Shown in pieces: positions 6,587 through 55,770 of a stretch of DNA of 64,000 nucleotides (positions are counted from its first letter, which is position 1; every line of letters begins with the position of its first letter). The notes beneath the pieces were generated by a model. The model was not told where the DNA came from, ran no database searches, and was given only the letters and a program-made list of their open reading frames with translations. A program made the translations under genes and the position numbers. Where the stretch lies: positions 4,074 to 68,073 of the forward strand of contig JAFQSA010000057.1 of the NCBI GenBank assembly GCA_017409765.1. Direction: 5' to 3'. The DNA comes from Clostridia bacterium. Its GTDB lineage: Bacteria > Bacillota > Clostridia > Christensenellales > CAG-314.

Positions 6587-6790
6587 AGTTTTTCTCCTCG
6601 TACTGTTAAAAATGTTTGGGGCGAGTTGACTTTTGCAAGCAAGATTGCCTTTGCGGATTGCCACGTCGGTTGTAAGTGCGCTTACACAAAGCAATACAAA
6701 TTGCCCCATTATTGAATATATTATACACTATATTTACAAAAAGGTAAATAGTTTGGGGAAATTTGCGACAAATCGACTAGTAAATTTGTA

Positions 6791-6818
6791 TTTTTCGCCG
6801 ATACGTGGTGGTTTTTTG
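6791..6818 (+). repeat. Family C motif copy (TTTTTCGCCGATACGTGGTGGTTTTTTG)
   Basis: One of about 15 copies. Lies ~205 nt upstream of the response-regulator start, co-oriented with it. Confidence 0.75.
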
Positions 6819-7031
6819 AATGTTAATGACAAACAAAATGTTGCCGAATTGAGGCATCTTTGGGCGGGAATTTGTCCACAAAAATACAGTTTTTGCAAAA
6901 GTTGACCTGTTGTTGACGGTAAATTTAAGTACAGTTTAAGAAAGTTTTGTATAATCTTTGGCATAAACTTGAAATGTAAAAATGCAGGTACAATGGGGGG
7001 GGTGTTGATACCTACACAAGGAGGATAAAAC

Positions 7032-7772
7032 ATGAACAACTACTACAAAATGCCTCACAAAGTGGAGTTTTCCGAAGTGGACTTTGGCTACAACATGCGC
7101 GTTGATCACATGGTGGAGCAATTCCAAAACATCACGGGACTGCACTCCACCGAGTTAGAAATTGATGCCAACACAATGAGAAACACCTCCAATGCCTTTT
7201 GGATACTTTCCAAATGGAAAGTTAAGGTTTTTCGCATGCCAAAGTTTGACGAAATTGTTACCATCGACACTTGGCCCACCTTTGCCAAAGGTGTAAGATT
7301 TGGCAGAGAGTTTACCATCCACAACGAAAAGGAACTGCTTGTTGCTTGCAACAGCGAATGGTGCACGTTGGACTTGGACACAAAACGCCCTCGCAGAGTA
7401 AACTCGGTGCACTACCCACACGACATGCCCCACCGCGAGGACAAAAGTGGCGCAGGGGATTTTTTGCAAGTGCGCGAAGTGGTTGACCAAGCACATCTGC
7501 ACCACATCCACAACGTGATGCTGACCGACATTGACGGCAACAAGCACACCAACAACATTGTGTACATCAAGATGATGTTGGACTGCTTTTCCATTGAGGA
7601 ATTTGCAACGCTCGACTTGGACGAAATGCAAATAACTTACCTATCGCAGACGTTTTGCGGGGACAAAATCCAAGTGTACAAAAAGCAAACGGACTACGGC
7701 TACTACATCCAAGGTAGTTGCAATGACAAGCCAATTTTTACTTGCGTGCTAACTTGCAAAAATTGCAAATAA
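7032..7772 (+). CDS. Acyl-ACP thioesterase
   Basis: 246 aa with a double hot-dog layout. The N-terminal block VDFGYNMRVDHMVEQFQNITGLHS is typical of the FatA/B-like bacterial acyl-ACP thioesterase family. AAGGAGGA SD. Confidence 0.8.
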   Translation: MNNYYKMPHKVEFSEVDFGYNMRVDHMVEQFQNITGLHSTELEIDANTMRNTSNAFWILSKWKVKVFRMPKFDEIVTIDTWPTFAKGVRFGREFTIHNEKELLVACNSEWCTLDLDTKRPRRVNSVHYPHDMPHREDKSGAGDFLQVREVVDQAHLHHIHNVMLTDIDGNKHTNNIVYIKMMLDCFSIEEFATLDLDEMQITYLSQTFCGDKIQVYKKQTDYGYYIQGSCNDKPIFTCVLTCKNCK

Positions 7773-7783
7773 ACAATAAACTA

Positions 7784-7821
7784 AAAAAGGCAAACACAAC
7801 TGTGTTTTGCCTTTTGTTTTT
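7784..7821 (+). terminator. Rho-independent terminator of the thioesterase gene
   Basis: GGCAAACACA-actg-TGTGTTTTGCC stem followed by a T-run. Confidence 0.75.
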
Positions 7822-7836
7822 GCACAAACTACTGCA

Positions 7837-7864
7837 TTTTTTGCGGATACGTGGTGGTTTTTTG
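7837..7864 (+). repeat. Family C motif copy (TTTTTTGCGGATACGTGGTGGTTTTTTG)
   Basis: Lies in a convergent intergenic region between two terminators. Confidence 0.75.
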
Positions 7865-8010
7865 TACGCAGTTGGGATATATGAGTGCTGTGCGCCATTT
7901 TGAAAAAACTTGATATTTAGCACAAAAAACACTATAACATCTGTACATGATTGTACAATTCAACATCCTGCATGTGCAAAAAGAATACGCCACACAACCC
8001 TATTAAAATT

Positions 8011-8045
8011 AAAAAGAGCAATCGAAAGTTGATTGCTCTTTTTGT
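8011..8045 (-). terminator. Terminator of the ABC exporter operon (usable in both directions)
   Basis: AGAGCAATC-gaaagt-TGATTGCTCT stem flanked by A- and T-runs. Confidence 0.7.
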
Positions 8046-8115
8046 ATTTGTAGATGAAAACAAAAATTAAAGTTGTTGCAAACCACGTTTACTTGTGTGG
8101 TTATTGTACTACTCA

Positions 8116-11888: not shown

Positions 11889-12080
11889 TTTTTACTTCCT
11901 TGATTTTGCGGGAAATCCGCAGTTGAAAAATTGGTTACATTGTTGTTTGAATTGGATGGGTAATTGTGCACCGCATTGCAGACACAACCAGACGTTGCTA
12001 CATTGCGATGGATACCGCACCATCAAAATAATACTTATTTATATACTATTTGAGTATGAAATAAAACTGAAAAACATCAA

Positions 12081-12098
12081 CTACGTGTGTGTTTTTTG
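12081..12098 (+). repeat. Family C motif copy, 5'-truncated (CTACGTGTGTGTTTTTTG)
   Basis: Lies ~190 nt upstream of the ABC operon start, co-oriented with it. Confidence 0.55.
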
Positions 12099-12156
12099 AA
12101 TTTTTGTTGCAAATTTTTACCAGTTTGATTACTGCTTGTTTGCAAGGTTAACCTTG

Positions 12157-15100
12157 TTACTTCTCAAAAAATACAACACACTTTTCGCCAAGAAGTCCTG
12201 CTAGTTCGTACTCGATTCCGGCACACTTGCGCACCTTTTGGTCGAGGGTGTACGCTTTGCCTTCGATCTTGATTTTTACAGGGATATCCCCTTGGTATTG
12301 ATCCAACACGTCGCACACTTTGGCAAAAATTTCCTCGTTGCGCTCTTCCATCTTTAGCCACAAAGTGACGTTTGGTTTGGTTGGAGTGTGGTCCGCCTCG
12401 GCAATGGCCTTTTTCTTGCTTTCGTCCGAGTTGGGGTCGATAATTTCGCGGATGACAATTTTGTAGCCCTCGCGTGCTTCGGAAAGTCCGCCCTTGATAA
12501 CTACAAATGCGTCGGTAACAAACTTGTCCTTGTAGCGCTCGTAGTTGACACCGTAGATGCTAACTTCGATGGAATCGAATTGGTCTTCCAAAACGGCAAA
12601 GCCCATCTTGTTGTTGTCCTTGCCGATAACCACGCGGATGTCGCGCAAAATACCGCCGGTAACCACTTGGCGTTTTTCCACCTTGGGGTAGACTTTTTCG
12701 CCATCGGGCGCACCGTCAGGAACGTAGGGCGCGGTGATTTTTGTGGAGAAGTCGAAGTGGTACTGACTTGCCACCTTGTCGTAGTCGTCCAAAGGAGAGC
12801 CCGTCATGTACAAACCAAGCACTTCGTTTTCGAAGGTGTAGAGCATTTGCTTGGGTAGTTCGGGAATTTGTTCGTGGGTTGGACGAGTGTCGTTTTTGAG
12901 TTCCGGCATCATGTCGAAAAGTGACATTTGACCTGTTTTGCGACGCTCAGCGCGCTCCAGCACTTCGTCGTACTCTTGCATGTAGAATTGGAGCATGTCC
13001 GCACGAGTTCTACCAAAGCAGTCGAATGCGCCACCCTTGATGAGGTTTTCGATCATGCGCTTGTTCAAGAAGGTTGCGCAACGCTCGTACAAGTCGCTTG
13101 TGTCGGCAAACTCGCCATGTTGTTCGCGTTCGTCCACCAACTTTTTGATAGCGTCCACACCAACGTTACGGATACCACCCAGACCAAAGCGGATAGCACC
13201 ATCTTCTACGTGGAACAACTCGCGACTCTTGTTAACGCAAGGTTGCAAAACGGCAATACCTTGGGACTTGGCGTACTCCATGTACTTTTTGATTAGGGAG
13301 ATATCGTTGATGCGGTTGTTCAACAGCGCACAAATAAGTTCCGTTGGGTAGTAGGTTTTGAGCCAAGCAGTTTGGTACGTTACGTAGGCGTAGCAAGTTG
13401 CGTGGGATTTGTTGAAGGCATATTGAGAAAATGCATCCAGTTGTTCGTAAATCTTTTGAGCAACTTCCTCGGGGATGCCATTGTTAACACAACCGGGGAC
13501 AGTTTCGCCATTGGCAGGCCAAGTGCCACCGTGGATGAACAATTGTCCAAGGTCTTGCATCATTTGAGTTTTCTTTTTGGACATGGCGTAACGAACGTTG
13601 TCCGCAAGGGCGGTAGAAAAACCGGCAAGCTTTTTAACCAGTTGCATAACTTGCTCTTGGTAGACAATACAGCCGTTTGTTACTGCCAAGATTGACTCCA
13701 TCGATGGGTGCAAGTAGTGAATTTTGGATTTGTCGAACTTGCAGGCGATAAAGTCGTCTATATATTGCATTGGGCCGGGACGATACAGGGAAATACCCGC
13801 GATGATTTCTTCCAAGTCGGTGGGCTTCATGCGGTGCATAAGGTCCGCCATACCGCCACTTTCAAGTTGGAAGATACACATTGTGTCGCCACCGGAAATG
13901 TTGTTGAACACGTTTTGGTCGGCGTAACTATCGTTGGAGAAATCAACTTTTACGCCGTGGTTTTCGTAGACGTAGTCGCACGCCTTTTTGATGTCGGTAA
14001 GTGTTCTAAGCCCCAAAAAGTCCATCTTCAAAAGGCCCAACTCTTCCACTTCGATCATGTTGTATTGGGTGGTTACAACACCGCCCTTAGATACACGACC
14101 ACCGTTTGTTTGAAGGGGTACGTGGTCGCTAACCTTTTCGCGACAGATAACAACGCCCGCTGCGTGCATACCTGTGTTGCGTGGGGAGCCTTCTAGGCGC
14201 ATTGCGCAGTCCAACAACTTGTGTGTTGCTGGATCGTTGTAGGCATCGATAAGTTCTTGGGAGATGTAGGTATCTTCCGGCTTTTTGTAGGTTTTTTTGC
14301 CCAACAAATGGCGAAGCGTGTACTTGAAGTTGTCCGGAACCATCTTTGCAAGGCGGTTGGAATCGGCAACGGAAAAGCGCATTACTCTGGCAACGTCGCG
14401 GATGGCATTTTTGGTTGCCATTGTACCAAAGGTTACAATTTGGCAGACGTTATCTGCGCCGTACTTTTTGTGTACGTAGTCGATAACTTCGCCACGGCGG
14501 TCCATACAAAAGTCGACGTCGAAGTCGGGCATGGACTTACGTTGTGGGTTCAAAAAACGCTCGAACATCAAATTGAAGCGGAAGGGTTCAACTTCGGTAA
14601 TGCCGATGAGGTAGGCAATGACACTACCTGCGCCACTACCACGGCCGGGGCCAACGGGGATACCATTTGTCTTGGCGTAGTTAATGAAGTCCCAAACGAT
14701 AAGGTAGTAGTCCACAAAGCCCATGTCGCAAATAACGCCATACTCGTACTCGACGCGCTCGCGGATTTCGTCCGTTACAACTGGGTACTTTTTCTTTAGT
14801 CCTTCTTCCAGCAAAAATCTGAGGTACTCTGGAGAGGACATTCCTCCTGGTGGAGTGTACAGTGGCAAAAGTTTTTCCTTGCCAAAGTCCACGTTGCACT
14901 TGTCGGCAATTTCCAAGGTGTTGTCCATGGCATCGGGCAAATTGGGGAACAAACTTGCCATTTCGTCGTAACTCTTGAGGTAGAATTGGTCACCTTCGAA
15001 CTTCATACGGTCGGTGTCGTCCACAAAGCGTCCCATTGCAACGCACATCATGATGTCTTGCAGTTCGGCATCTTCTTGGCGAAGATAGTGAACGTCGTTT

Positions 15101-15702: not shown

Positions 15703-15723
15703 GTTTTCTCCTGTGTGATGGTG

Positions 15724-15751
15724 TTTTTAGGGGATACGTGTTGTGTTTTTG
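15724..15751 (+). repeat. Family C motif copy (TTTTTAGGGGATACGTGTTGTGTTTTTG)
   Basis: Sits inside the 57-nt whiA-dnaE spacer, 22 nt upstream of the dnaE ATG. Confidence 0.75.
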
Positions 15752-15759
15752 CGAATGGG

Positions 15760-16704
15760 CTAGTCCTGTTGGGAAAGTTGGATTAGTCGTGTTAGACGGT
15801 GGTTAGCACCGCTTTTGGATATACCAAGTCGGTTGGCAAGTTCCTCGAGGCCTGCTTCTGGGAACTCTTCGCGAAGGAGAGCAATTTCCTTGAGTTGGTC
15901 GGACAAACTATCGAACAAACCCTTTTGGCGCAAGGTGGCAATGGCGATTAGTTGCTTTTCCGAGGCTTGGATGGCCTTGTCGATGTTGGCGGAAATGCAG
16001 TTGCTTTGGCGGTTGGCCGTGTTACGAATACTGCGTCCAATGATGACGTTTTCCAACTTCAAACTGGCGCTAGTTGCACCCAAGTACACCAAAAAGTCGG
16101 CAATTTTTTCGCTTTCCTTTAGGTACAAGATTGTGCGGTTTTTGCGCTCCAAGGTGTGGAAGGACCACTCGGCAAAGGTTTGTTGGATTGCCTTGGCAAG
16201 TTGGGTGTTTGCCAGTCGCAACTCCAAGTGGTACTTGCCCCTTGTTTCGCTTTCCGCAAGGTCGTTGGAGCCAAGTGGAATTACTACCGAGCCACTTGCA
16301 ACAAACAATCCTTGCATAAAGGCGCGTTTGCAACAATCCTTGGTGGGCAAAATTTCCTCCAGGCGATTGTTGATTTGCATTGTGCCTTCCTCATCGCGGT
16401 ACACAAGCCCCAACTTTTCGCCAATGTTGCCCAAAAACTCGCAACTGTACACCGCTTCGCCTTTGACGTTCAAGTTGGAACTTTCAATTTCGGCGGAAAT
16501 GCCAAGGTTGGCTTCGGCAAGGTGTTTGCAGAAAGTTAGCATTTCGTGATTTTCGCTTTCCACAACAAAGCCGAAACTTTTGTAGCCCAAAGTTAGACTA
16601 CCGATGCTTTTTAAGACGGCAGTCAAAAAGGAAGTTGCACAGCAACCCCTAAGATGGCGAAGAATTTTGAGAATTTCCAGTTTGGTGGATTGAGAAAATG
16701 TCAT
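15760..16704 (-). CDS. whiA: DNA-binding protein WhiA
   Basis: 314 aa. N-terminal ...CC..SFLTAVLKSIGSL, LAGLIDADG-like middle region, and a C-terminal HTH (LEELANRLGISKSGANHRL). Confidence 0.9.
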   Translation of the reverse strand: MTFSQSTKLEILKILRHLRGCCATSFLTAVLKSIGSLTLGYKSFGFVVESENHEMLTFCKHLAEANLGISAEIESSNLNVKGEAVYSCEFLGNIGEKLGLVYRDEEGTMQINNRLEEILPTKDCCKRAFMQGLFVASGSVVIPLGSNDLAESETRGKYHLELRLANTQLAKAIQQTFAEWSFHTLERKNRTILYLKESEKIADFLVYLGATSASLKLENVIIGRSIRNTANRQSNCISANIDKAIQASEKQLIAIATLRQKGLFDSLSDQLKEIALLREEFPEAGLEELANRLGISKSGANHRLTRLIQLSQQD

Positions 16705-17611: not shown

Positions 17612-17637
17612 AGGACAAAATTGAATTTTTTTGGAAA

Positions 17638-17664
17638 TTTTTGGGGATACGTGTTGCTTTTTTG
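17638..17664 (+). repeat. Family C motif copy (TTTTTGGGGATACGTGTTGCTTTTTTG)
   Basis: Lies 27 nt upstream of the murB ATG, co-oriented with it. Confidence 0.75.
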
Positions 17665-17759
17665 AAAATTTTAATTTTTAGAAATTGAAAAAAATTGGAA
17701 GGATTTTGTGGGGCAATAGAACACTTGATTGCGCAAAAACTCGTGCAAAAACGGTTTTT

Positions 17760-18884
17760 TTACTGCGAATTTATCTCTTTCAATGCGCTACTGCGAGCAT
17801 CCAAAATAGACTCTTCGTCGGCAAAAACATTTGGAACAATTGCCTTTGAAATGCCACTTTCGCAGGCGGAATACCACTCGTTTGTGTACAAATTTTGACA
17901 AGTGACGCTAAACATGGAAATATCTCGCACACTTTGCTGAACGGTGTCCGTCAAAAGATACTGCACGTACTTTTGGCAAATGGATAGATTGGATGTGTGC
18001 TTGCTAATGCCCACGTAACTAACAAGGTCGGTATAGGCGGTCAAGGGAGCAAACAGCAGTTCTTCCATTTTGCCAAGTTCCAGTTTTTTGCCGAGGCGGT
18101 ACATATCCCGTTGAGTACCAAGCAACGTTACTGCACTTTTGTTGGCAACAAACTGCTCGTAGGCGGTGTACTGGGTTGTGGAGTAATCTGGTTGAAACGC
18201 GCCTTTGACGCCACTTTTTGCCAAAGCGGTTAGTGGACTGTTGTACCCGCTAAATCCGCACACAAGGGGAGCAAGCGTAATTGTGTTTTTGCCCACCTTT
18301 CGCGTGAAAGTTGTAGTTAAACAGTTTGCCAAAACGTCGCCATTTTGCTGACTTTTTCGTGCAAAAACGCAGTACGTACCCACAAAAATTGGAATTGCAT
18401 AGGTGGAGTTGTGCACCCGTCCGCTTTGGGCAAAATTGTCCAAAACACCACCAAAATCTACGTCCATTGGGGCAAGATTTTGCAACACTTTTGCACCCAC
18501 TCCGCGGGAAAAACACAGCAAATCAAACTTTTGCCCATCCGCCAGTTTTGCCAAGAGTTGGCTTTCCGTAAGCGCCGTTACGCACACAAAAACACCCTTG
18601 TTTTGGCTTTCGAACTGAGCGGAGCGCTTGGTAAACCAACTTTGCCTGCTGCCGCTACCGCCTTCGAAACTATCCACCAACCACAAATTGATTACACCTT
18701 GATAGGTGGCGTTTGCATCCGTTGTTGGCCTTTGCGGAAGGTTTGGCATGGCAAAAATAAACACGCCGGCAATTGCCACCACAACCAATGCTTGAGCAAT
18801 CAGTTGCGGAGTAAGTCGTTTGAGATGCATAACCTTTTTGTCTTTTTGCTTATTCTTTGGCTTTACTATCTTGATTTTACCCAT
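17760..18884 (-). CDS. Membrane-anchored extracytoplasmic protein, possibly with a periplasmic-binding-protein-like fold
   Basis: Single N-terminal TM (LIAQALVVVAIAGVFIFA) followed by ~330 soluble aa. No family motif recognised. The start is ambiguous (18884 or 18830). Confidence 0.45.
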   Translation of the reverse strand: MGKIKIVKPKNKQKDKKVMHLKRLTPQLIAQALVVVAIAGVFIFAMPNLPQRPTTDANATYQGVINLWLVDSFEGGSGSRQSWFTKRSAQFESQNKGVFVCVTALTESQLLAKLADGQKFDLLCFSRGVGAKVLQNLAPMDVDFGGVLDNFAQSGRVHNSTYAIPIFVGTYCVFARKSQQNGDVLANCLTTTFTRKVGKNTITLAPLVCGFSGYNSPLTALAKSGVKGAFQPDYSTTQYTAYEQFVANKSAVTLLGTQRDMYRLGKKLELGKMEELLFAPLTAYTDLVSYVGISKHTSNLSICQKYVQYLLTDTVQQSVRDISMFSVTCQNLYTNEWYSACESGISKAIVPNVFADEESILDARSSALKEINSQ

Positions 18885-22280: not shown

Positions 22281-22362
22281 TTGGTTGTTGAACAATGCAC
22301 TTGTAAGCTTGTGTTGTTGAAAATTCAACGCACAAACCAAATAAAACTAAATTAGCACAAAG

Positions 22363-22394
22363 AAAAGACTTTGGATTGTTCCAAGGTCTTTTTT
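22363..22394. terminator. Bidirectional terminator hairpin, copy 1 of a direct repeat
   Basis: AAAAGACTTTGGA-ttgt-TCCAAGGTCTTTTTT. Confidence 0.7.
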
Positions 22395-22453
22395 CAAACA
22401 AACATTTTGATGGATAAACAAGTTTCACAAAGATATACTGCTATCACAAAAAG

Positions 22454-22485
22454 AAAAGACTTTGGATGTTTCCAAAGTCTTTTTT
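22454..22485. terminator. Bidirectional terminator hairpin, copy 2 (91 nt after copy 1)
   Basis: AAAAGACTTTGGA-tgtt-TCCAAAGTCTTTTTT, near-identical to the 22363 copy. Confidence 0.7.
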
Positions 22486-22657
22486 GGTTGGTATTGAACT
22501 GAAGAACGGAAGTAATTGAACAAAGAAAATAAAAAACTACAAAATAAAAGGAGTAAAATGTAGCAACGTGCAATACCAACCGTAAAATTACACAAGCGAT
22601 GCCCGTGAAATTTTGCAATGGGTGAGTGTTTCCACAACGTTTGTTGCAGTTTTGCGC

Positions 22658-22686
22658 AAAATCGCCGATACGTGGTGAGTTTTTGA
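22658..22686 (+). repeat. Family C motif copy (AAAATCGCCGATACGTGGTGAGTTTTTG)
   Basis: Lies 11 nt downstream of the pdxK-like stop codon, co-oriented with that gene. Confidence 0.75.
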
Positions 22687-23576: not shown

Positions 23577-23621
23577 CGCCCTCTCAGGCACTCACGTGCC
23601 AGCTCCCCCAAAGTGGGAGCC
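23577..23621 (+). repeat. Family B intergenic repeat
   Basis: CGCCCTCTCAGGCACTCACGTGCCAGCTCCCCCAAAGTGGGAGCC, followed 11 nt later by a degenerate Family A copy. Confidence 0.8.
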
Positions 23622-23631
23622 TTTTACAAGG

Positions 23632-24385: not shown

Positions 24386-24463
24386 AGGTTTGTTCCTTTT
24401 TTGGGGGGATGTGGTAGTTTTTTGAGTGAAGTTTTTGTGTAGGCGAGCGCAAGTCCACAATTT

Positions 24464-30416: not shown

Positions 30417-30547
30417 CATCGTGTCGCGTATTAAACGCGTCGCGCACAAAGTGGAAGCCATCGCGAGTTGTTGAATTATGCCGTGTCATCCAACGGGGAA
30501 AGCGCTTGCCACGATATAATTTTAGTTACTATGCTACAATTTGCGTG

Positions 30548-30575
30548 TTTTTTGGGGATACGTGTGCTGTTTTTG
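30548..30575 (+). repeat. Family C motif copy (TTTTTTGGGGATACGTGTGCTGTTTTTG)
   Basis: Lies 6 nt downstream of the DUF4430 stop codon, co-oriented with that gene. Confidence 0.75.
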
Positions 30576-30580
30576 ACAAT

Positions 30581-31078
30581 CTAGAAGGTGGAAATTTCGA
30601 AGTAGAAAATTGCGCCACTTTGCACTTTGGCATCACTAACGCCCACTTGTGCGGACACAATTTGTGTGCCATCCACGTTGTAGGTGGGAACGCCTGCCCA
30701 GTTGCCTTTGTCGCTTTCCACCGTAGTGAAAAATGCGACAAACTCGTTTTTGGATGCATCCGGCACCGCTTTGCCAATGGCGTTGAGCATCTTGCCGTAG
30801 TCGCTGTCCATCCAATCCAAATGCATGCCGTTTTCCTTGAGGTAAGCAAGCACGTCTTCCACCGAAGTCATATCCTCGGACAATGTTACGGTGTAGCTTG
30901 TGTAGTCGCTTTCGCCATTTTTGATGATTACTGCAACTTGGCCTTGCTTGAGAGTGGGCAACTCAAGTTTATCAAGTGCCTTTTCGGTGGGTTTTTCCAC
31001 ACAGGCAACCAAACCAGTTGCACAAACAACAAGCACCACCATCAAAATCCACGTTAACAGTTTTGTTGTGTTTTTCAT
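30581..31078 (-). CDS. DUF4430-type (transcobalamin-like beta-grasp) lipoprotein
   Basis: ATG at 31078 with an AAAGGAGA SD. Lipobox GLVAC. Blocks SVEDVLAYLKENGMHLDWMDSDYGKMLNAI and AKVQSGAIFYFEI, typical of DUF4430. Confidence 0.7.
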   Translation of the reverse strand: MKNTTKLLTWILMVVLVVCATGLVACVEKPTEKALDKLELPTLKQGQVAVIIKNGESDYTSYTVTLSEDMTSVEDVLAYLKENGMHLDWMDSDYGKMLNAIGKAVPDASKNEFVAFFTTVESDKGNWAGVPTYNVDGTQIVSAQVGVSDAKVQSGAIFYFEISTF

Positions 31079-31162
31079 AGTTATTCTCCTTTGCAACATT
31101 TGTTGCGCTATTCTAACACAATTTTCCGTGTGGAGTTGATGTTTTTTGCCAAAAATGCAATA

Positions 31163-31190
31163 AAAATCGCCGATACGTCGTTGTTTTTTG
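31163..31190 (+). repeat. Family C motif copy (AAAAATCGCCGATACGTCGTTGTTTTTTG)
   Basis: Lies inside the 5' UTR, between the riboswitch terminator and the DUF4430 ATG. Confidence 0.75.
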
Positions 31191-31216
31191 TAGGATTGCG
31201 CAGTCATTTTGCCAAC

Positions 31217-31255: not shown

Positions 31256-31440
31256 AAAAATGAGTTGAATCTTTGCATCGAAGACCACTCGAAAATTGTT
31301 GCAGTTGGGCATTCGGACTTGGCAATGCCTTACCGTAGCGGGACTGTCAATGATTTGCACATTGTTCCCCCACAAATGCGATTGTTACAATTCAATTTGT
31401 AAGATACCAACAACGTTTTCCATCGTAAAGTGGGTGCTTT
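31256..31440 (-). promoter_or_regulatory. Cobalamin (B12) riboswitch
   Basis: The minus strand reads GGGAAC-AATGTGCAAATCATTG-ACAGTCCCGCTACGGTAAGG and then GCCAAGTCCGAATGCCC. This matches the GGGAA / GGUG.AAAUCC / CCCGC.AC.GUAAG core and a B12-box-like segment. The downstream genes are a typical B12 regulon. Confidence 0.75.
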
Positions 31441-31691
31441 TGCAAAGATTTTGGGTTGTTTGCAACCTTTTTTGCAAAAATGCACTACTTTGTGCAGAAA
31501 ATTTGTTTGGCAACACTTTACACATCGAGGATTGTTCACGCAACCTGCAAACTATTGTGTTGTGGGATAATTATACATCAAAACGTCCAACTGTACAAGT
31601 AAATTTGCAATTTTGTTTGCAGATATTGACGGATAGAATATTTATTAGTATAATCAATATAACAATTTGCGGAAAAGTTCAAACAATTTGG

Positions 31692-31724
31692 CAAAAAAAT
31701 TGCGTTGAACGTTTCCTGTTAAAG
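31692..31724 (-). repeat. Family C motif, degenerate, opposite orientation (CAAAAAAATTGCGTTGAACGTTTCCTGTTAAAG)
   Basis: Lies 62 nt upstream of the plus-strand protease gene, co-oriented with it. Confidence 0.35.
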
Positions 31725-31785
31725 CGGTCGATTGGTAACGTCTTGCCAAATCGCCCAGCCTACACCTACCAAAGGGGGTACATCT

Positions 31786-34353
31786 ATGAAAAAGTTAGCA
31801 TTAGCTTTGCTGATGGTTTTGTGCGTCACTTGCCTGTTTTGCGCTTGTGATTTTATGGAAGAGCCGTGCACAATCACAACGGAAAAAAGCAGATACACCG
31901 TCTACGTTGGGGACACGGTAGACTACAAAAGTTACTTTACAATCACTAGCGCTACAGGGGAAAACGTGCCCGTTACCGACGACATGATTTCCGCGCCTGA
32001 TGCGGACTTGACAAGGCCATGGTCTTTCCTTGTGACATGCGCCTACCAAGGCGTTTCCAAATCCATCATCATCTCGGTGGAAAACAAACCTGGTGCGCAC
32101 ACCCACCAATTTGCCGATGCAACCTGCACCGCTCCAAAGACATGTTCTTGTGGAATTACCGAAGGCGAGGCGCTTGGTCACACAGAAAAGGTTGTGGATG
32201 CAACACCTGCCACTTGCACACAAAGCGGTCTAACCGAGGGCAAGGTTTGCTCCGTTTGCAACGAGGTGCTTGTGGCGCAACAAAGCGTTACAGCAACAGG
32301 TCACACCGAGCCAAACGCTCAAGGACGATGCGCTACTTGTGGCGAACAACTGCTACTTTCCACTTTGGATCTTGCCGATGCCATGGCAAAGTGCAATAAG
32401 TACGAAAAGTGGAACTTTGCTGTGAAGTTTGACGTGTCCGTTGCGGACAAATCCCTTGCGGAAGAGTACGCCTACACATACATCTACTACTACGACGGAG
32501 TAAACTTCTACTACAGCGACGTTGAAGGCAGTTTTTACGACTACATCGTCTACACCGACGACAACATCTTGTACTACTTGGATAACGAAAACGGAACGCA
32601 CTCGCTTTTGACTGCCGAGGATGATGCCTTTTACGATTGGTATCCCTACTTGGATTTTATCGAATTGACAACACTTGTACAATTTAACTTTGAGACAAAT
32701 GGCAACCGCTTTTCGGCAAGTTTGCCAAATGCTGTTGGCGAAGAGGTTATCGGTGGCTACGAGGATTGCGTGTACACCGCATTTGATATCTACGTTGTGG
32801 ACGACGTGATTGTAAAGATTGTGGCAATTCAACAAGACTATCAACTGAACACAACCTTTACCTACACGTTGGAGTTTTACAACCACGGCAACATCACAAT
32901 GGACACAAGCAAGTTGGTTGTGGAAAACGACCCCAGCCTTGACCAAGGTGGCGGAGAAACTCCACCAGTTGACGGCGGAACAATGCCTGAGCAAGTGTTT
33001 GACGAAAACAATCACGTGGACTACGACGACATTTTGTACGATGCCATCACCGACTACGACGACAAAAACTACTACTTGCCATCTACTGGATTGCCATCAC
33101 AAGGCAAGTACAACGTGCTTGTTGTACCTGTGGAGTTTTCCAACGACGTTTTTACCGCGCAAGAACTAGAAGACATTGCAAAAGTGTTCAACAATCAATC
33201 GGCAACCGGTTGGCAAAGTGTTGCAAGTTACTACAAAACCTCCTCCTACGGAAAGTTGGACTTGACCTTTGATATTGCTGACAAAGTTTCCTTGAGCGCA
33301 ACCTACCAAAGTTTCAACAAGGCGGACACCAATGGCGAAAAGGACTACGGTCAAAGCATCTTTAAGCAAGCATTGGATAAACTTGATGCGCGCGGATTTG
33401 ACTTTTCCAAGTACGACTACGATAACAACGGCATTATTGATGGTGTGTACATCATCTACAGCGCGCCAGTTGACTACGACACAACCGACTACTACTGGGC
33501 GTACGTAACCGCCTACACCGCTGATGACCAAACGGAGTACGACAATCTGTTGCCCTACACCTACCTGTTTGCAAGTGTGGACTTTGCCTACGAGGATATC
33601 GAAACAAGCGACCCTGAGGAGTTTAGCCCCATTGCTAGTCTAAAACTAAACGCAACAACCTACATCCACGAAACGGGCCACATGTTGGGATTGGACGACT
33701 ACTACGACTACATGCCTGACCAAGGTAGCGACCAAGGTTTGGGCGGTGCGGACATGATGGACTACACCGCGGGCGACCACAATGCCTACTCCAAGTTGTT
33801 GCTTGGTTGGGTAAAGCCAACGGTTGTAACGTCATCACAAACTGTGACCATCAACCCACTGGAAAGTAGCGGACAGTTCATCATTGTGCTACTGGACTAC
33901 AACGGAACGTACTTTAGCGAATACTTGATCATCGATTTGTACTCCGCAACGGGACTAAACGAGATGCACGCCAACGTGGAAGGTAGTTACCTCTACGAAG
34001 GGGCAAAATTTGGTGCGCGTATCTATCACGTTGACGCCACCATCAACATCCCCTACAACGAAAATGACACCTACCAATCCTTTACAGATAACAACAACTC
34101 CACCACAGCGCATCCGTTGTTGCAGTTGGTGGAAGCGGACGGCGACAAGAATTTTGAAAGCGAAGGGGAATACTACCAAGGTCAATACTACACCCAGGCG
34201 GGCGCAGACGACTTGTGGCAAACGGGCGACGTGTTTAGAAACGTCCATCCATACTACACTCGCCACGATGGCAAGGAAGTAAACTTTGATATCACATTTG
34301 ATAGCGTAACTGCAACAAGCGCAACCATTACAATATCTTTTGACTACGAATAG
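31786..34353 (+). CDS. M6-like (immune inhibitor A-type) zinc metalloprotease lipoprotein with N-terminal Cys-rich repeats
   Basis: ATG at 31786 with an AAAGGGGG SD. Lipobox-like LFCAC. Three ATC-x-G/CxxC modules (ATCTAPKTCSCG, ATCTQSGLTEGKVCSVCN, RCATCG). M6-type start KYNVLVVPVEFSND. HExxH site IHETGHMLGLDDYYDY. Confidence 0.75.
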   Translation: MKKLALALLMVLCVTCLFCACDFMEEPCTITTEKSRYTVYVGDTVDYKSYFTITSATGENVPVTDDMISAPDADLTRPWSFLVTCAYQGVSKSIIISVENKPGAHTHQFADATCTAPKTCSCGITEGEALGHTEKVVDATPATCTQSGLTEGKVCSVCNEVLVAQQSVTATGHTEPNAQGRCATCGEQLLLSTLDLADAMAKCNKYEKWNFAVKFDVSVADKSLAEEYAYTYIYYYDGVNFYYSDVEGSFYDYIVYTDDNILYYLDNENGTHSLLTAEDDAFYDWYPYLDFIELTTLVQFNFETNGNRFSASLPNAVGEEVIGGYEDCVYTAFDIYVVDDVIVKIVAIQQDYQLNTTFTYTLEFYNHGNITMDTSKLVVENDPSLDQGGGETPPVDGGTMPEQVFDENNHVDYDDILYDAITDYDDKNYYLPSTGLPSQGKYNVLVVPVEFSNDVFTAQELEDIAKVFNNQSATGWQSVASYYKTSSYGKLDLTFDIADKVSLSATYQSFNKADTNGEKDYGQSIFKQALDKLDARGFDFSKYDYDNNGIIDGVYIIYSAPVDYDTTDYYWAYVTAYTADDQTEYDNLLPYTYLFASVDFAYEDIETSDPEEFSPIASLKLNATTYIHETGHMLGLDDYYDYMPDQGSDQGLGGADMMDYTAGDHNAYSKLLLGWVKPTVVTSSQTVTINPLESSGQFIIVLLDYNGTYFSEYLIIDLYSATGLNEMHANVEGSYLYEGAKFGARIYHVDATINIPYNENDTYQSFTDNNNSTTAHPLLQLVEADGDKNFESEGEYYQGQYYTQAGADDLWQTGDVFRNVHPYYTRHDGKEVNFDITFDSVTATSATITISFDYE

Positions 34354-34526
34354 TTGTTGCGCCGTTGAGCAAACGTAAACTACTACAAAATAGATTGGTT
34401 TTGAACAATACTTGTGAGTGTTGCTACACAATGCTGTGAGGTGCGCTACACAATACTGATTGGTTGTATTCTAACTACATTGATAGATTGAAAAATCTAA
34501 CAGTCCAAAACTAAAACAAAACATAA

Positions 34527-34562
34527 ATAAAACCGCCTTGGAAAGCCCAAAGCGGTTTTTTG
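34527..34562. terminator. Bidirectional terminator between the protease and yfcE-like genes
   Basis: AACCGCCTTGG-aaagc-CCAAAGCGGTT stem flanked by A- and T-runs. Confidence 0.7.
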
Positions 34563-34702
34563 TTTTAGATAATGTAGTAAACTTCGATAATGAATTTTAG
34601 TAAACTCCTCATAAAATCCGTTGATAAAACAACTCCCAACACAAAATATCCAAAAGCGATAAATCCGCAAGGAAATTCTGCAAAACGTTGACAATTTGTG
34701 CG

Positions 34703-34731
34703 TTTTTCAAGGGGACGTGGTTGTTTTTTTG
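34703..34731 (+). repeat. Family C motif copy (TTTTTCAAGGGGACGTGGTTGTTTTTTTG)
   Basis: Lies 65 nt downstream of the yfcE-like stop codon, co-oriented with that gene. Confidence 0.7.
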
Positions 34732-34795
34732 CATTTACAAGGGCTGGAGTGCGCATCAATTTGCACCCAAAAGCATTCCCTTGCAGAGCGCAAAA

Positions 34796-35338
34796 CTACA
34801 TTTTGTAGGTCTTGTATGGTGTGCCTTCGAGGTCTTTCCAAGTGAACAGACCATCTTGCAAAACAAGGTAACTGTGGGGGCTTTGTTCCTTGGGGATGGA
34901 AACTGAGCCACAGTTGATGTAGAGATTGTTGTTGCCGAAAGTTTCCACCGTGGGCACGTGGAAGTGGCCGTTTACAAGCACGTCGCCACTTGCTAATGCT
35001 GGTGGATTGGATTTGCTGTGAACGTGTCCATGGGAGCAAAAGATTGTTTTTCCGTCGACAAACAGCATGGCATTTTCCACAACGGGGAAGTGTAGGAGCA
35101 TTTGGTCGATATCGGCATCGCAGTTGCCCTCTACCCAAATGATACGATCGGCAATTGTGTTGAGCAGTTCCGCAACCTTTTGTGGGTTGTAGTCCATTGG
35201 CAATGGATTGCGTGGGCCGTGGTACAAAACGTCCCCCAAAATTACAAGTTTGGTGGGGTTTTCGTCGTGAAAACAATCAACAAGTTGTTTGCAAAAATGC
35301 GCTGAGCCGTGGATATCGCTTGCTATCATAAGTTTCAT
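34796..35338 (-). CDS. YfcE/MJ0936-family metallophosphoesterase
   Basis: 180 aa. MKLMIASDIHGS, ILGDVLYHGPRN, GNCD and GHFH metal-ligand blocks. Confidence 0.85.
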   Translation of the reverse strand: MKLMIASDIHGSAHFCKQLVDCFHDENPTKLVILGDVLYHGPRNPLPMDYNPQKVAELLNTIADRIIWVEGNCDADIDQMLLHFPVVENAMLFVDGKTIFCSHGHVHSKSNPPALASGDVLVNGHFHVPTVETFGNNNLYINCGSVSIPKEQSPHSYLVLQDGLFTWKDLEGTPYKTYKM

Positions 35339-36166: not shown

Positions 36167-36245
36167 ACAATCCCCTTGATAGATTAGTGTATGTTTTAGG
36201 CCATCATTTTGCCACAAAAGTTGATTGATTTTTTGTCAATTTGTG

Positions 36246-36276
36246 CAAAAATGTGGGATACGTGGTTGTTTTTTTG
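36246..36276 (+). repeat. Family C motif copy (CAAAAATGTGGGATACGTGGTTGTTTTTTTG)
   Basis: Lies 80 nt upstream of the GlmU-C-like ATG, co-oriented with it. Confidence 0.75.
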
Positions 36277-40676: not shown

Positions 40677-40745
40677 AAATCTAAGGCAATCGGCATTTGG
40701 TAGTCGTCGGCAAATTTAACAAAGGGGCTCATTTGTTCTTGGAAA

Positions 40746-40916
40746 GGTGCTGTCGCAATAAATGGTTGATTAGCCATTTGGCGATTGGCGGATAAAACAC
40801 AAGCAGGCGATGTGTTCTTGTGAAGGAGCATACCCTCAGTGGTCTGTGACTGAACAAAACACAGATGATTGCGTAGTGTTTTGCCACCAAAAGCAACCAG
40901 GAATTGAGAAAGCGCC
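40746..40916 (+). promoter_or_regulatory. Helix-closed ~171-nt leader element, copy 1 (candidate cis-regulatory RNA or MITE)
   Basis: About 80% identical to 43663-43835. Outer helix GGTGCT/AGCGCC, inner helix TGGTTG/CAACCA, then GGCGG/CCACC enclosing three hairpins. Ends 20 nt before the metG ATG. Confidence 0.45.
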
Positions 40917-40935
40917 TTTAAAACAGAGGGAAAAA

Positions 40936-42879: not shown

Positions 42880-43661
42880 TGATTGACAGTCATTTGCACC
42901 TAGATGACGAGCGCCTGATTGGTCAAGTGGAGCAAATTGTTGCAGAATTTGACACACGTGGCATCGATTTTGTCATCAACAACAGCGCAGACCTTGCGGG
43001 AATGATTGCAAGTTACAAGCTTGCCAACACCTACGAAAAGGTGTTTGCAACAGTTGGTATGCACCCACACACCGCCAAAGATTTTGACGCAAACTTTGTC
43101 CATTTGATGAAGGAATATGCCAAAAATCCCAAGGTGGTTGCCGTTGGCGAGATTGGTTTGGACTACTACTACGACCTGTCCGAGCGACAAATCCAACGGG
43201 ACGTGTTTGCCGAGCAAATTGAAATTGCCGATCAACTTGGTTTGCCAATAACTTTGCACATCCGTGATGCCTACGGCGATGCGATGGACGTGTTGAATGC
43301 GCAAAAAAAGTATCTCAACAGCAACGTTTTGTGGCATTGTTACAGTGGCTCGGCAGAGTTTGCAAAGCAATGTGCCAAACTTGGACACTACTTTGCTTTT
43401 GGTGGCGCGATAACCTTCAAAAATGCCAAAAAGGAAGAGGTTTTGCAAGCAATCCCCTTTGACCGCATTTTGACGGAAACGGATGCACCCTACATGGCGC
43501 CTGTGCCACTTCGCGGAACAACCAACACACCTTTCAACATTCCGCTGATCATCGAAAAAATGGCAAGTGCGCTTGGCAAAACTCCACAAGAAGTGGAAAA
43601 TCAAGTGCGCAAAAACACTTTGCAAATGTTCCCACGAATTGGGGAGTATCTTAATAAATAA
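42879..43661 (+). CDS. TatD family metal-dependent hydrolase
   Basis: 260 aa. MIDSHLHLD start, GEIGLDYYY, HIRDA and ETDAPY blocks. The start overlaps the metG stop (TAATG). Confidence 0.9.
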   Translation: MIDSHLHLDDERLIGQVEQIVAEFDTRGIDFVINNSADLAGMIASYKLANTYEKVFATVGMHPHTAKDFDANFVHLMKEYAKNPKVVAVGEIGLDYYYDLSERQIQRDVFAEQIEIADQLGLPITLHIRDAYGDAMDVLNAQKKYLNSNVLWHCYSGSAEFAKQCAKLGHYFAFGGAITFKNAKKEEVLQAIPFDRILTETDAPYMAPVPLRGTTNTPFNIPLIIEKMASALGKTPQEVENQVRKNTLQMFPRIGEYLNK

Positions 43662-43662
43662 A

Positions 43663-43835
43663 GGCTATGTCACAAGAAATGGTTGATTAGCCACTAGGTG
43701 ATTTGGCGGATAAAACGCAAACAAGACATGTGTTATTGTGAGGGCGCATACCTGGAAGGTCTGTAACCGAGCAAAACACATAGGATTGTGCAGTCGTTTT
43801 GCCGTCAAAAAGCAACCAGAGTTTGTGACAGAGCC
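43663..43835 (+). promoter_or_regulatory. Helix-closed ~173-nt leader element, copy 2
   Basis: Begins 2 nt after the tatD stop. Outer helix GGCTATGTCAC/GTGACAGAGCC pairs at 10/11 positions. Followed by a Family C copy and two hairpins before the radical SAM ATG. Confidence 0.45.
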
Positions 43836-43845
43836 TAACAAAAAA

Positions 43846-43871
43846 TCAATCACGTGTCCGCAAATTTGCGG
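43846..43871 (-). repeat. Family C motif copy, opposite orientation (AAAAAATCAATCACGTGTCCGCAAATTT)
   Basis: Lies 51 nt upstream of the plus-strand radical SAM gene, co-oriented with it. Confidence 0.65.
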
Positions 43872-53614: not shown

Positions 53615-53644
53615 CAAAAATTGCACCACGTGTGCGCAAATTTT
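53615..53644 (-). repeat. Family C motif copy, opposite orientation (CAAAAATTGCACCACGTGTGCGCAAATTTT)
   Basis: Lies 73 nt upstream of the plus-strand recF gene, co-oriented with it. Confidence 0.6.
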
Positions 53645-53716
53645 GGCAAATATTACTGCAAAACTTTTGCGCCCCAAAACAAAAGGCAAACAAACAATAC
53701 CATCAAGGAAAAGGAT

Positions 53717-55632: not shown

Positions 55633-55734
55633 CTTGCGCTTTTTGTTGTGGTACAATTTGTTTAGCAAAGGGACTGTTGACAAATTTTGCCAACAAAACA
55701 AACCACAAAAATACGCAAAAAAGGTGCAAATTTG

Positions 55735-55755
55735 CAATACGTATCCGCAAAAATG
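55735..55755 (-). repeat. Family C motif copy, opposite orientation, 5'-truncated (CAATACGTATCCGCAAAAATG)
   Basis: Lies 16 nt upstream of the plus-strand HAD gene ATG, co-oriented with it. Confidence 0.6.
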
Positions 55756-55770
55756 CGCCGAGGAGGAGCA

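Follow-up and report, generated by a model that had tools for sequence, protein, structure and literature searches.

An oriented, clade-restricted family of asymmetric 32-bp intergenic elements in a Christensenellales genome, with a possible role as protein docking sites

Analysis of 64,000 nucleotides of a Clostridia bacterium genome (contig JAFQSA010000057.1; "the window" hereafter) revealed a family of short, non-palindromic and unstructured elements that lie mostly between genes, are oriented with transcription, are restricted to this species and one sister species, and share a core conserved between the two. Tentatively, we read them as a young, insertion-spread, clade-restricted family of asymmetric ~32-bp DNA sites that may be docking sites for a protein. 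In gene sense, the 32-base consensus is CAAAAA(A)-N4-5-CACGT(A/G)TC-SSC-(A/T tract)-GC. Its parts are CAAAAA, which is invariant, a 5-mer rich in C and A, the likewise invariant core CACGT(A/G)TC, a triplet of strong bases (CCC, GGC or CGC) and a tract of A(n)T(m) type.

The sequence GATACGTG occurred eight times in the window, on the plus strand only, against 1.25 expected, and none of 100 shuffles reached eight; the stricter pattern CAAAAAN{4,5}CACGTATCSSCNWWWW was found six times in the window and in none of 100 shuffles. With a 32-column position matrix, 14 sites reached the threshold for window copies (≥18 bits), while five shuffles yielded only zero or one site at ≥10 bits. The 14 sites are as follows.

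6788..6819, minus strand: copy of 43.1 bits (TCAAAAAACCACCACGTATCGGCGAAAAATAC) in a divergent gap, ~55 nt upstream of the -35 of a good sigma-A promoter of a response-regulator/kinase operon; orthologous copy in L048.
7834..7865, minus strand: top-scoring copy of the window (45.4 bits), flanked in its convergent gap by two intrinsic terminators (8010-8044 and 7786-7818) and followed by no ORF; missing in the sister species and L141.
15721..15752, minus strand: copy of 40.6 bits in the 57-nt whiA-dnaE gap, ending 22 nt from the dnaE ATG.
17634..17665, minus strand: copy of 42.0 bits, 27 nt upstream of the murB ATG (murB-whiA-dnaE cluster).
18361..18392, plus strand: weak variant of 19.7 bits with core GTACGTACCC (core A at 18374) and no GAYAC, within a poorly supported hypothetical ORF, kept in other strains and L019; doubtful as a family member.
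22655..22686, minus strand: copy of 32.7 bits in a convergent gap, starting 11 nt past the stop of a thiD-like kinase gene, with tandem terminators ~170 nt beyond.
24394..24425, minus strand: weak copy of 18.5 bits with core CACATCCCCC (core A at 24412), immediately upstream of the ribosome-binding site and ATG of Hpre_diP_synt_I.
30545..30576, minus strand: copy of 38.5 bits, starting 5 nt past a stop codon; orthologous copy at L041 1957.
31160..31191, minus strand: copy of 32.3 bits that separates ORF 30581-31078 from the terminator of its AdoCbl-II riboswitch (31299-31390, minus strand); in L041 the ortholog of this copy has decayed (11/14 core positions).
34700..34731, minus strand: degenerate copy of 20.8 bits with core CACGTCCCC, in a convergent gap bordering a 3.2-kb segment specific to the window.
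36245..36276, minus strand: copy of 37.3 bits, 29 nt upstream of a hexapeptide-transferase start (36217), with two REP-like hairpins in the same gap; orthologous copy at L041 4410.
43839..43870, plus strand: copy of 28.4 bits with a palindromic-type core CACGTGTC, 52 nt upstream of a radical-SAM gene.
53615..53646, plus strand: copy of 28.9 bits with core CACGTGTG, in the divergent gyrB/recF gap, ~72 nt upstream of the recF ATG (53718).
55726..55757, plus strand: weak copy of 18.7 bits with GCAAATTTG in place of the 5′ CAAAAA, 14 nt upstream of an HAD hydrolase ATG.

A preliminary description of this DNA had listed 15 copies, and the motif it described is real: 12 of its positions were recovered (6791, 7837, 15724, 17638, 22658, 30548, 31163, 34703, 36246, 43846, 53615 and 55735), while the remaining three (12081 and the two it called degenerate, 46823 and 31692) scored below 10 bits and were indistinguishable from chance. 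The placements it singled out were also borne out, namely before dnaE in the whiA-dnaE gap, between the terminator of a B12 riboswitch and its ORF, soon after stop codons (starts at 5, 8 and 11 nt), and, on the plus strand, ~14 to 72 nt upstream of radical-SAM, recF and HAD genes.

Folding of eight copies as RNA on both strands gave 0 to -5.2 kcal/mol, with z-scores between -0.4 and +0.4 for seven copies and -2.0 for one, in agreement with the absence of hairpin potential noted earlier. Of the Rfam covariance models none matched the motif, and only the AdoCbl-II riboswitch reached the gathering score anywhere in the window; neighbouring repeats had no Rfam match, and a literature search with the core 9-mers returned primers only. 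The set was enlarged to 51 sites from the window and further loci, 41 of them strong, with genes assigned by a codon-usage model and checked against Pfam. Practically all of the 41 strong sites have a 3′ tract of the A(n)T(m) type, with A6T, AT5, A3T3-5 and T5-6 interchangeable. The sole variable core position is +4 (A/G), positions +7 and +8 are merely "strong" bases (CC, GG or CG), and CAAAAA stands exactly 17 bp from the A/T tract (CAAAAA-N17-AWWWWT). The interchangeable tract and the loosely specified +7/+8 suggest a readout of DNA shape and stability rather than of RNA sequence. Moreover, the motif shares the phase of the A-tracts that recur in the intergenic DNA around it. Their periodicity of 10.7 to 11 bp is a genome-wide intergenic property that accounts for part of the motif's flanking A-tract signal, and phasing was thus rejected as a motif-specific trait.

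Canonical copies are limited to this species and one syntenic sister species, "Ca. Fimimonas sp." (84 to 88% nucleotide identity). A scan of 185,579 species genomes placed 23 of 47 exact matches in a single genome, that of "Ca. Fimimonas sp.", the remaining matches being singletons with no second copy nearby, and phage, plasmid and viral collections gave chance matches only. In relatives whose WhiA is 90, 87 and 84% identical, the syntenic 21-kb loci contained no canonical copy; the matrix detected one variant of 28.2 bits and two weak sites (14.2 and 21.5 bits) there, compared with seven copies in the same stretch of the window. In more distant loci the motif was not found.

The copy in the whiA-dnaE gap is part of a clean 42-nt insertion after the whiA stop, with boundaries between TAG and CCCATTCG on one side and between ACACCAT and CACACAGG on the other; it is missing in L019, L141, L142, L143 and L144. 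Other lineage-specific copies are also accompanied by extra DNA. No target duplication, terminal inverted repeats or associated transposase was seen for the motif. The copy upstream of murB is probably the oldest, because a diverged homologous sequence occupies the matching position in L141 and L142; this homologue could be the ancestral copy. Site-specific cassette recombination at the motif was unsupported, since junctions fall outside the core and flanks are non-homologous. Three strain- or species-variable segments adjoin copies (6816-8111, 31620-34797 and, in L003, the ORF after dnaE). The preliminary description had held that confinement to one strain as flanks of a known mobile element would speak against its reading. 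No known mobile element has the copies as its flanks, but the clade is very narrow and at least one insertion is recent, so the population behaviour of the family is closer to that of a dispersed repeat than had been assumed.

Conservation within orthologous copies is uneven. Between the two species, 66 of 70 invariant positions were kept, against 64 of 90 variable positions and 340 of 592 flank columns (57%), and Fisher tests on these counts gave p = 6e-11 and 2e-4. A core conserved at 94%, where variable positions of the same copies reach 71% and flanks differ at ~43%, points to position-specific constraint and not to mere youth.

Apart from six of the 51 sites inside ORFs (codon-usage model calls without homology check; four of the six at 18 to 26 bits), the copies are intergenic. 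Occupancy was highest in convergent gaps (10/16) compared with divergent ones (3/17), and at ~38 of 44 classifiable intergenic sites in the 51-site set the upstream neighbour is the end of a co-oriented gene; the earlier emphasis on locations upstream of genes was therefore too narrow. Ten copies start 4 to 11 nt past stop codons. Co-orientation with a flanking gene, previously said to be invariable, nearly is: in tandem gaps (26 sites), 23 copies are co-oriented and 3 anti-oriented. A general strand asymmetry of intergenic DNA was rejected as the source of this bias, given a background CAAAAA:TTTTTG ratio of 78:87 in tandem gaps outside the motif. The bias is measured relative to genes, and gene-level and replichore-level orientation are inseparable in the present sample. 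A replication-origin switch within the window was also rejected, as origin evidence was absent, cumulative GC skew rises monotonically and skews track gene strand. The gyrBA and argS genes are located on the minus strand, right of 45 kb.

Of the 14 window copies, 10 are 9 to 82 nt upstream of a co-oriented start codon, never nearer than a ribosome-binding site allows. Window copies 7852, 22673 and 34718, together with ~10 copies of the sister species, face convergent gene ends or terminators, and for about one quarter of the strong copies such an end or terminator lies 20 to 60 nt ahead. The consensus-perfect copies 7852, L051 3809 and L030 720 are downstream of strong terminators or between two of them. 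A few strong copies (L053 3834, L050 6250) are anti-oriented to both neighbours. Sigma-A promoters of ordinary type occur downstream of several copies, and no coherent regulon was found among the flanking genes. Copies located between converging genes, or with a terminator on either side, sit poorly with a promoter and with a UTR element alike.

Several explanations other than a protein-binding DNA site were weighed. One is an RNA-level cis element: transcribed leaders, intercistronic spacers and 3′ UTRs would carry an unstructured, C/A-rich tract, with ACGUAUC at its core, as the target of an RNA-binding protein or RNase. It would agree with the strong co-orientation with transcription, the unstructured and G-poor sense strand, the toleration of copies within the gap of an essential operon and of one separating a riboswitch from its ORF, and the copies just past stop codons. 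We nevertheless regard it as unlikely, given that A6U, AU5 and U6 in the 3′ tract, and CC, GG and CG at +7/+8, occur alike and are not RNA-equivalent, that the perfect copies past or between terminators are expected to be little transcribed, and that a few strong copies run against both neighbours. Of the alternatives left by the preliminary description, an RNA site is thus weakened by the interchangeable tract and the copies at terminators, and a DNA operator, taken in a broad sense, is preferred. It is rather unlikely, in our estimation, that the family is a selfish or neutral miniature repeat devoid of host function, copied by template switching at A-tract microhomologies or by a trans-acting enzyme, with its uniformity reflecting youth or gene conversion and its orientation the purging of harmful insertions. 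Such a repeat would account for the clade restriction and recent expansion, for the discrete 42-nt insertion and the extra DNA with other lineage-specific copies, and for the highest frequency in convergent gaps, where insertions harm least; the antisense strand of the GGC class is also flagged as weakly terminator-like, two such copies combining a 6-pair stem (G-T pairs allowed) with T6 in a terminator scan. The position-specific constraint on the core argues against it, however, as does the lack of the inverted repeats, hairpin and target duplication of known MITE and REP mechanisms. An intrinsic terminator was itself rejected, the sense strand being unstructured and antisense fold energies no better than those of shuffles.

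A promoter for an alternative RNA polymerase holoenzyme, with CAAAAA and the A/T tract as -35 and -10, or ACGTATC as an ECF/ComX-like -10 and transcription starting within the 3′ tract, appears improbable. The CAAAAA-N17-AWWWWT geometry, the majority of window copies ahead of co-oriented start codons, and their adjacency to a preceding stop codon or terminator, as expected of the first element of a new transcription unit, all suit it. Yet AT5, or T6 lacking any A, may stand in place of the "-10" hexamer, CAAAAA shares only 2 of 6 positions with TTGACA, and the A-tract is 6 to 7 nt from CGT as opposed to 16 to 17 nt in ECF promoters; in addition, about a quarter of the strong copies point at a nearby convergent gene end or terminator, several have ordinary sigma-A promoters downstream, and the flanking genes lack a coherent regulon. 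A sigma-70 consensus scan did not call the motif a promoter. Least probable is a DNA uptake signal of the Haemophilus USS or Neisseria DUS kind, accumulating through biased uptake and recombination. The core with phased A/T tracts, the strict confinement to one lineage, the conservation with turnover of orthologous copies and the frequent proximity to terminators recall such signals, but the copies are far rarer than USS or DUS (about 1 per 5 to 10 kb or less; 14 in 64 kb), are virtually absent from coding DNA, are oriented with genes and are gained by insertion rather than point mutation, and the phased tracts are general to intergenic DNA here. To our knowledge, sequence-specific DNA uptake has not been described in Gram-positive bacteria. 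Among further candidates, all compared informally, DnaA boxes matched at 7 of 9 positions in the CCC class only and poorly in the GGC class, while parS, sigma-54, sigma-B/D/H/I/W, ComX -10, ComK boxes and LacI/GntR operators did not fit in spacing, in orientation or in the second sequence class.

Under the preferred reading of a protein-binding DNA site, the motif would act as double-stranded DNA that docks one sequence-specific protein asymmetrically, probably as a monomer, which bends the DNA or profits from DNA already bent. The family would have been amplified in the common ancestor of both species through insertion of modules of ~40 bp or more into intergenic DNA, and purifying selection would have acted on the motif ever since. 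Co-orientation with transcription would likewise be upheld by selection, possibly because the reverse orientation adds a G/U-rich stretch and a U6-7 run to transcripts. Against this reading, the position of 10 of the 14 window copies less than ~100 nt upstream of a co-oriented start suits a promoter or leader element as well.

The complementary strand, SSS-GAYACG-TG-N5-TTTTTG, points to WhiA as a candidate binder, which is a lead and not a finding. The core consensus read by the WhiA helix-turn-helix is GAYAC (PMC3781837, PMC11701221), and the complement of +6 to +2 reads G (88%), A (100%), Y (T 77%, C 23%), A (100%) and C (100%), with the variable core position +4 (A/G) coinciding exactly with the Y. 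Within the extended GAYACRCY, the R is present (G) and positions 7 and 8 are TG, not CY. The invariant TTTTTG lies at positions 13 to 18 from the G of GAYAC, its TTG overlying that of the -35-like Mycoplasma auxiliary element GTTGT (15 to 19), and the rest differs. WhiA binds an asymmetric site as a monomer, its ~34-bp coverage including a second, downstream contact (PMC11701221, PMC10243135), and in B. subtilis it occupies many chromosomal sites unrelated to the expression changes of a whiA mutant (PMC10714963). The WhiA of the window (15760-16704, minus strand) keeps the equivalents of S. venezuelae R266, L274, K287 and R293, with R295 replaced by T. Like WhiA boxes (GACAC in Streptomyces; GAYACRCY plus GTTGT in Mycoplasma gallisepticum and Firmicutes rpsJ promoters), the motif is asymmetric, has GAYAC followed by R, and carries a TTG-containing second element 16 to 18 bp from the G of GAYAC; the long WhiA footprint on bent DNA is a further likeness.

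That the motif represents genome-wide, oriented WhiA docking sites amplified from an ancestral site upstream of the murB-whiA-dnaE cluster nonetheless seems quite unlikely. The GAYAC match has an a priori chance of ~2 to 3% per factor, with many factors compared informally, and is suggestive only. Mycoplasma WhiA is sensitive to single core substitutions and the motif differs at positions 7 and 8; known boxes are situated in promoters, upstream of or overlapping the -35, and point to the gene, whereas motif copies are mostly downstream of co-oriented genes with GAYAC pointing away. Moreover, tens to hundreds of near-identical 32-bp copies in one small clade are unheard of for WhiA. The WhiA recognition helix showed no co-evolution with motif presence, being identical in the relative L061, where 14 kb sampled contained no copies; WhiA alone therefore cannot account for the clade restriction.

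Short interspersed extragenic repeats are common, and nearly all of the well-understood ones are either palindromic, such as REP and MITE ends, or uptake signals. The motif resembles RAYT-associated REP/BIME elements in being ~30 to 40 bp long, abundant, extragenic and multi-copy, in its location at gene ends and in convergent gaps, and in its lineage-specific gain and loss between close relatives; REP/BIME can also be protein-binding sites (gyrase, IHF). It differs from them in lacking a palindrome or hairpin and, by the position matrix, the 5′ GT(A/G)G tetranucleotide. No RAYT transposase was found among Pfam-scanned genes of the 64-kb window and the 8-kb loci. A separate family in the window, with GTAGGGG and a GC hairpin, genuinely fits REP, and the earlier view of the motif as a specific, non-palindromic, unstructured and oriented recognition element that is not of REP type stands. 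Unlike MITEs, the motif has no inverted arms, and its 42-nt insertion made no target-site duplication. USS/DUS share with it a lineage-specific core of ~10 bp and orthologous conservation with turnover, and their helically phased A/T tracts have a counterpart in the 11-bp A-tract phasing that is general to intergenic DNA here; they occur at ~1 copy/kb within and between genes without orientation, in contrast to the sparser, intergenic, oriented and insertion-spread motif. KOPS, SRS, Chi and Ter are similarly non-palindromic and uniformly oriented over long chromosome stretches, but KOPS, SRS and Chi are 5 to 8 bp and mostly inside genes and Ter numbers about ten per genome, whereas the motif is 32 bp and extragenic, and three window copies flip with local gene direction, contrary to polar chromosomal motifs.

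What marks out the motif is its strict asymmetry, the constraint on particular positions, its orientation with transcription and an age no greater than that of one genus-level split. Annotators of metagenome-assembled genomes (MAGs) from this clade could take the motif for a promoter or an RNA element. Provided that it docks a protein, it offers a defined 32-bp probe with which to isolate the binder, and if that binder is WhiA, a handle on WhiA function outside actinomycetes. Should the WhiA docking reading be true, a non-regulatory, nucleoid-associated role of Firmicutes WhiA in chromosome compaction, segregation and cell division would be written as a DNA code at the ends of transcription units.

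The motif was real and beyond chance. The sequences listed in the preliminary description were present in the window, where GATACGTG occurred eight times, on the plus strand only, against 1.25 expected, and CAAAAAN{4,5}CACGTATCSSCNWWWW matched six times versus none in 100 shuffles. With a 32-column position matrix built from 40/43 aligned copies of the window and the sister species, "Ca. Fimimonas sp." (JAZRHU01), 14 window sites scored at least 18 bits, while shuffles gave zero to one matches of at least 10 bits. Twelve of the 15 positions first reported were recovered, the three described as degenerate (12081, 46823, and 31692) remaining below 10 bits, and two weak copies were added. Neither strand folded into any structure, in keeping with the earlier statements that the motif lacks hairpin potential and is not a REP-type repeat.

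Motif columns in gene sense, numbered from the A of ACGT
-12 to -7: CAAAAA, A at 95 to 100%
-6 to -2: variable, C/A-rich
-1 to +6: CACGT(A 77%/G 23%)TC
+7 and +8: C or G
+9: C
+11 to +16: A/T tract, T at end
+17 and +18: often GC

Additional weak copies from the matrix scan
Core A at 24412, minus strand
Core A at 18374, plus strand

An exact-pattern scan of 185,579 species, with one genome per species, returned 45 stretches, of which 21 (23 matches) came from the single assembly JAZRHU01, which is syntenic with the window at 84 to 88% nucleotide identity and encodes a 95.5% identical WhiA. Each remaining stretch held a single match without a second motif-like sequence, and viral, phage, and plasmid collections yielded chance matches only. 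The window WhiA was 100% identical to that of GCA_017408955.1 and of many ENA/Logan contigs. Matrix scanning of syntenic loci from relatives with 90, 87, 84, and 74% identical WhiA revealed no canonical copy, compared with seven in the same 21 kb of the window. Among these fetched loci, L143 held one fairly good variant (28.2 bits) within a called Hpre_diP_synt_I ORF, weaker variants lay upstream of murB in L142 (14.2 bits) and L143 (21.5 bits), and a proto-site upstream of a response-regulator gene was seen by eye in L141. The comparison with related genomes proposed earlier thus found canonical copies in one sister species and none in these relatives, which places the expansion of the canonical family in an ancestor shared by two species-level lineages. 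Identification as a REP, a MITE, or the flank of a known mobile element was rejected; of the earlier alternative of strain-confined mobile-element flanks, what stands is the narrow range.

A relative with 76% identical DnaE had no copy; its convergent gap did hold a single palindromic cousin, CAAAAAAGCGATACGTATCGCGATTTTG. This perfect palindrome (positions 4055 to 4094 of L061, a locus of a more distant relative) lies upstream of a bidirectional terminator and hints that a GATACGT half-site with A/T tract may predate the asymmetric family. In the NCBI taxonomy, Candidatus Fimimonas is listed with the Myxococcaceae (incertae sedis), and one homologous WhiA carries the source label "Corallococcus sp.", yet SpoIIE, WhiA, and clostridial synteny give it the gene content of Clostridia. 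The window itself stems from an uncultured Clostridia-type bacterium of gut or rumen and encodes SpoIIE, WhiA, DnaE, GyrBA, and RecF.

The whiA-dnaE gap records one insertion. In five relatives it reads TAG/TAA-CACACAGGAGA-N4-ATG (15 nt), while the window species has 42 more bases, CCCATTCG-CAAAAACACAACACGTATCCCCTAAAAAC-ACCAT, without target duplication and with the first 8 inserted bases already strain-variable. Since dnaE expression must continue, the element there is not a strong terminator. Extra DNA accompanies other lineage-specific copies as well. Across five orthologous copy pairs from the window and sister species, the 14 invariant positions were identical in 66/70 cases, compared with 64/90 for variable positions of the same copies and 340/592 aligned flank columns (p = 6e-11 and 2e-4), a pattern of position-specific constraint more than of youth. 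The copy upstream of murB-whiA-dnaE, whose homologues in the relatives with 90% and 87% identical WhiA are diverged but recognizable, may be the founder. The murB start at window 17611 (conserved CCTATGAACACTC) lacks a recognizable Shine-Dalgarno sequence in any relative, and murB may be leaderless or otherwise translated.

A second family, in which (C/T)GTAGGGG precedes a GC-rich hairpin and then CGC (e.g., CCGTAGGGGAGGGGTTGCCCCTCCCGC), has eight window copies, all minus-oriented and all intergenic, and is found as well in the sister species and in more distant relatives (GTAGGGGCGACCTGTGGTCGTCCGC). Its signature is as expected for RAYT-associated REPs, and the family is genuinely REP-like. 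The degenerate position 46823 directly adjoins one such element.

REP-like elements (G of GTAG; minus strand, each extending ~30 nt leftwards)
3053
4689
23657
26797
36380
36456
40674
46876

Placement was analyzed for 51 scored sites from the window and 18 sister-species loci, using gene calls from a codon-usage model whose training set was Pfam-verified genes. Forty-five were intergenic; the six within ORFs, which are unverified gene calls, comprised four of 18 to 26 bits and two strong sites.

Strong sites inside called ORFs
L035 (sister-species locus), 3606: 42.4 bits
L026 (sister-species locus), 6576: 33.4 bits

The copies had been described as always co-oriented with a flanking gene; in tandem-gene gaps 23 were co-oriented and 3 anti-oriented, against a CAAAAA:TTTTTG background of 78:87 there, and the copies at L053 3834 and L050 6250 opposed their adjacent genes. 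The end of a co-oriented gene was the 5'-side neighbor in ~38/44 intergenic sites with a neighbor within the locus; ten copies began 4 to 11 nt after a stop codon, and others directly behind a terminator T-run. Of the tandem, convergent, and divergent gaps, 20/78, 10/16, and 3/17, respectively, held a site of at least 26 bits. In the window alone, where gene calls were verified, 3/4 sizeable divergent gaps were occupied and 10/14 copies also preceded a co-oriented start codon by 9 to 82 nt; a promoter role is nevertheless unlikely. Only "intergenic" and "mostly co-oriented" are robust rules. Most contigs showed one motif orientation throughout, and because the REP-like family is likewise uniformly oriented in the window, there may be an orientation component at the scale of the whole replication arm (replichore). 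Against such a component, the three plus-strand window copies all lay within runs of plus-strand genes, with gyrBA and argS nearby on the minus strand; in its favor, the L053 3834 and L050 6250 copies ran counter to the genes beside them.

Several positions had been held to be transcribed spacer or UTR only. The best copy overall (7852, 45.4 bits) is situated in a convergent gap between two intrinsic terminators with nothing to transcribe; behind several sister-species copies, the convergent gene's terminator followed 20 to 60 nt further on. Among 41 strong sites, the tract at the 3' side took the forms A6T, A5T, AT5, A2T5, A3T3-5, and T5-6, each an A(n)T(m) stretch as in classical DNA A-tracts, any TpA step falling at an edge, and columns +7/+8 accepted any "strong" base; these alternatives are the same for duplex DNA geometry and different as RNA. 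This interchangeability, together with copies outside likely transcripts, favors action at the DNA level, so that of the recognition sites first suggested, a protein-binding DNA site is preferred over an RNA one. Phased A/T tracts at +21, +32, +44, and +55 were in register with the motif; since the intergenic DNA of these genomes shows this 10.7- to 11-bp periodicity generally, the motif sits within curved DNA and is not its cause. Autocorrelation of A-tracts (AAA/AAT/ATT/TTT) in the window and Fimimonas loci peaked at lags 11 to 12, 21 to 22, and 31 to 32 in intergenic and not coding DNA, with units like GCAAA(A/T)TTTGC, implying strongly phased and curved non-coding DNA.

Other elements were observed nearby. 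A ~50-nt element, GGCTCCCACTTTGGGGGAGCTGGCACGTGAGTGCCTGAGAGGGC, with a thiamine-box-like CTGAGA, occurs at window 23578-23623 and 1415-1469 and at 3194-3239 of L025, one upstream of a thiD-like kinase gene; Rfam returned no family at E<0.1. Behind the thiD-like gene, a 417-nt convergent gap holds two near-identical tandem bidirectional terminators (AAAAGACTTTGGAAACATCCAAAGTCTTTT, 22357-22485), the first separated from motif copy 22673 by ~170 nt of non-coding sequence. A ~3.2-kb segment (31620-34797), missing from the sister species, contains a sigma-A-like promoter (31626-31654), an 855-aa plus-strand ORF (31786-34353) without Pfam match, and a terminator (34529-34559). A 178-nt direct repeat (40743-40917 and 43660-43836; 78% identity; no Rfam match) lies upstream of metG and of a radical-SAM gene, in the latter case stopping just short of motif 43852. 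In ~97%-identity strains (L003 14549-15140 and L005), a 168-aa lipoprotein-like ORF directly behind the dnaE stop replaces the 84-nt window segment (12074-12157) with the degenerate 12081 copy.

The motif groups with known short interspersed extragenic repeats and dispersed sites for protein binding. The description that fits best is a young family of asymmetric, putatively protein-binding DNA sites that is restricted to one clade, has spread by insertion, and is under purifying selection. One candidate binder is WhiA. Read on the complementary strand, the repeat is (A/T tract)-SSS-GAYACG-TG-KKTKK-TTTTTG; Streptomyces WhiA binds asymmetric GACAC as a monomer (PMC3781837), and Mycoplasma gallisepticum WhiA recognizes GAYACRCY with a downstream auxiliary GTTGT, covering ~34 bp and distorting the DNA (site TTGCTGATACACCAAAAACCGTTGTCAAG; PMC11701221). 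The repeat's sole variable core base is the Y of GAYAC, the following base is R, and the invariant TTTTTG sets TTG 16 to 18 bp from the G of GAYAC, as in Mycoplasma. Of five residues that the S. venezuelae structural study mutated (PMC10243135), window WhiA keeps four, including K287, described as base-specific. On the B. subtilis chromosome, WhiA has numerous sites that bear no relation to altered expression in a whiA mutant, and it influences chromosome compaction (PMC10714963). In contrast, core positions 7 and 8 depart from the WhiA consensus, copies are not promoter-proximal, and GAYAC points away from the co-oriented gene; L061 encodes the same recognition helix, yet no copy occurs in the 14 kb sampled. 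A GAYAC-type match has a ~2 to 3% chance per factor, and many factors were compared. Weighing literature and inference, we consider it rather unlikely that WhiA binds the repeat; such a link, if true, would raise the interest of this motif family.
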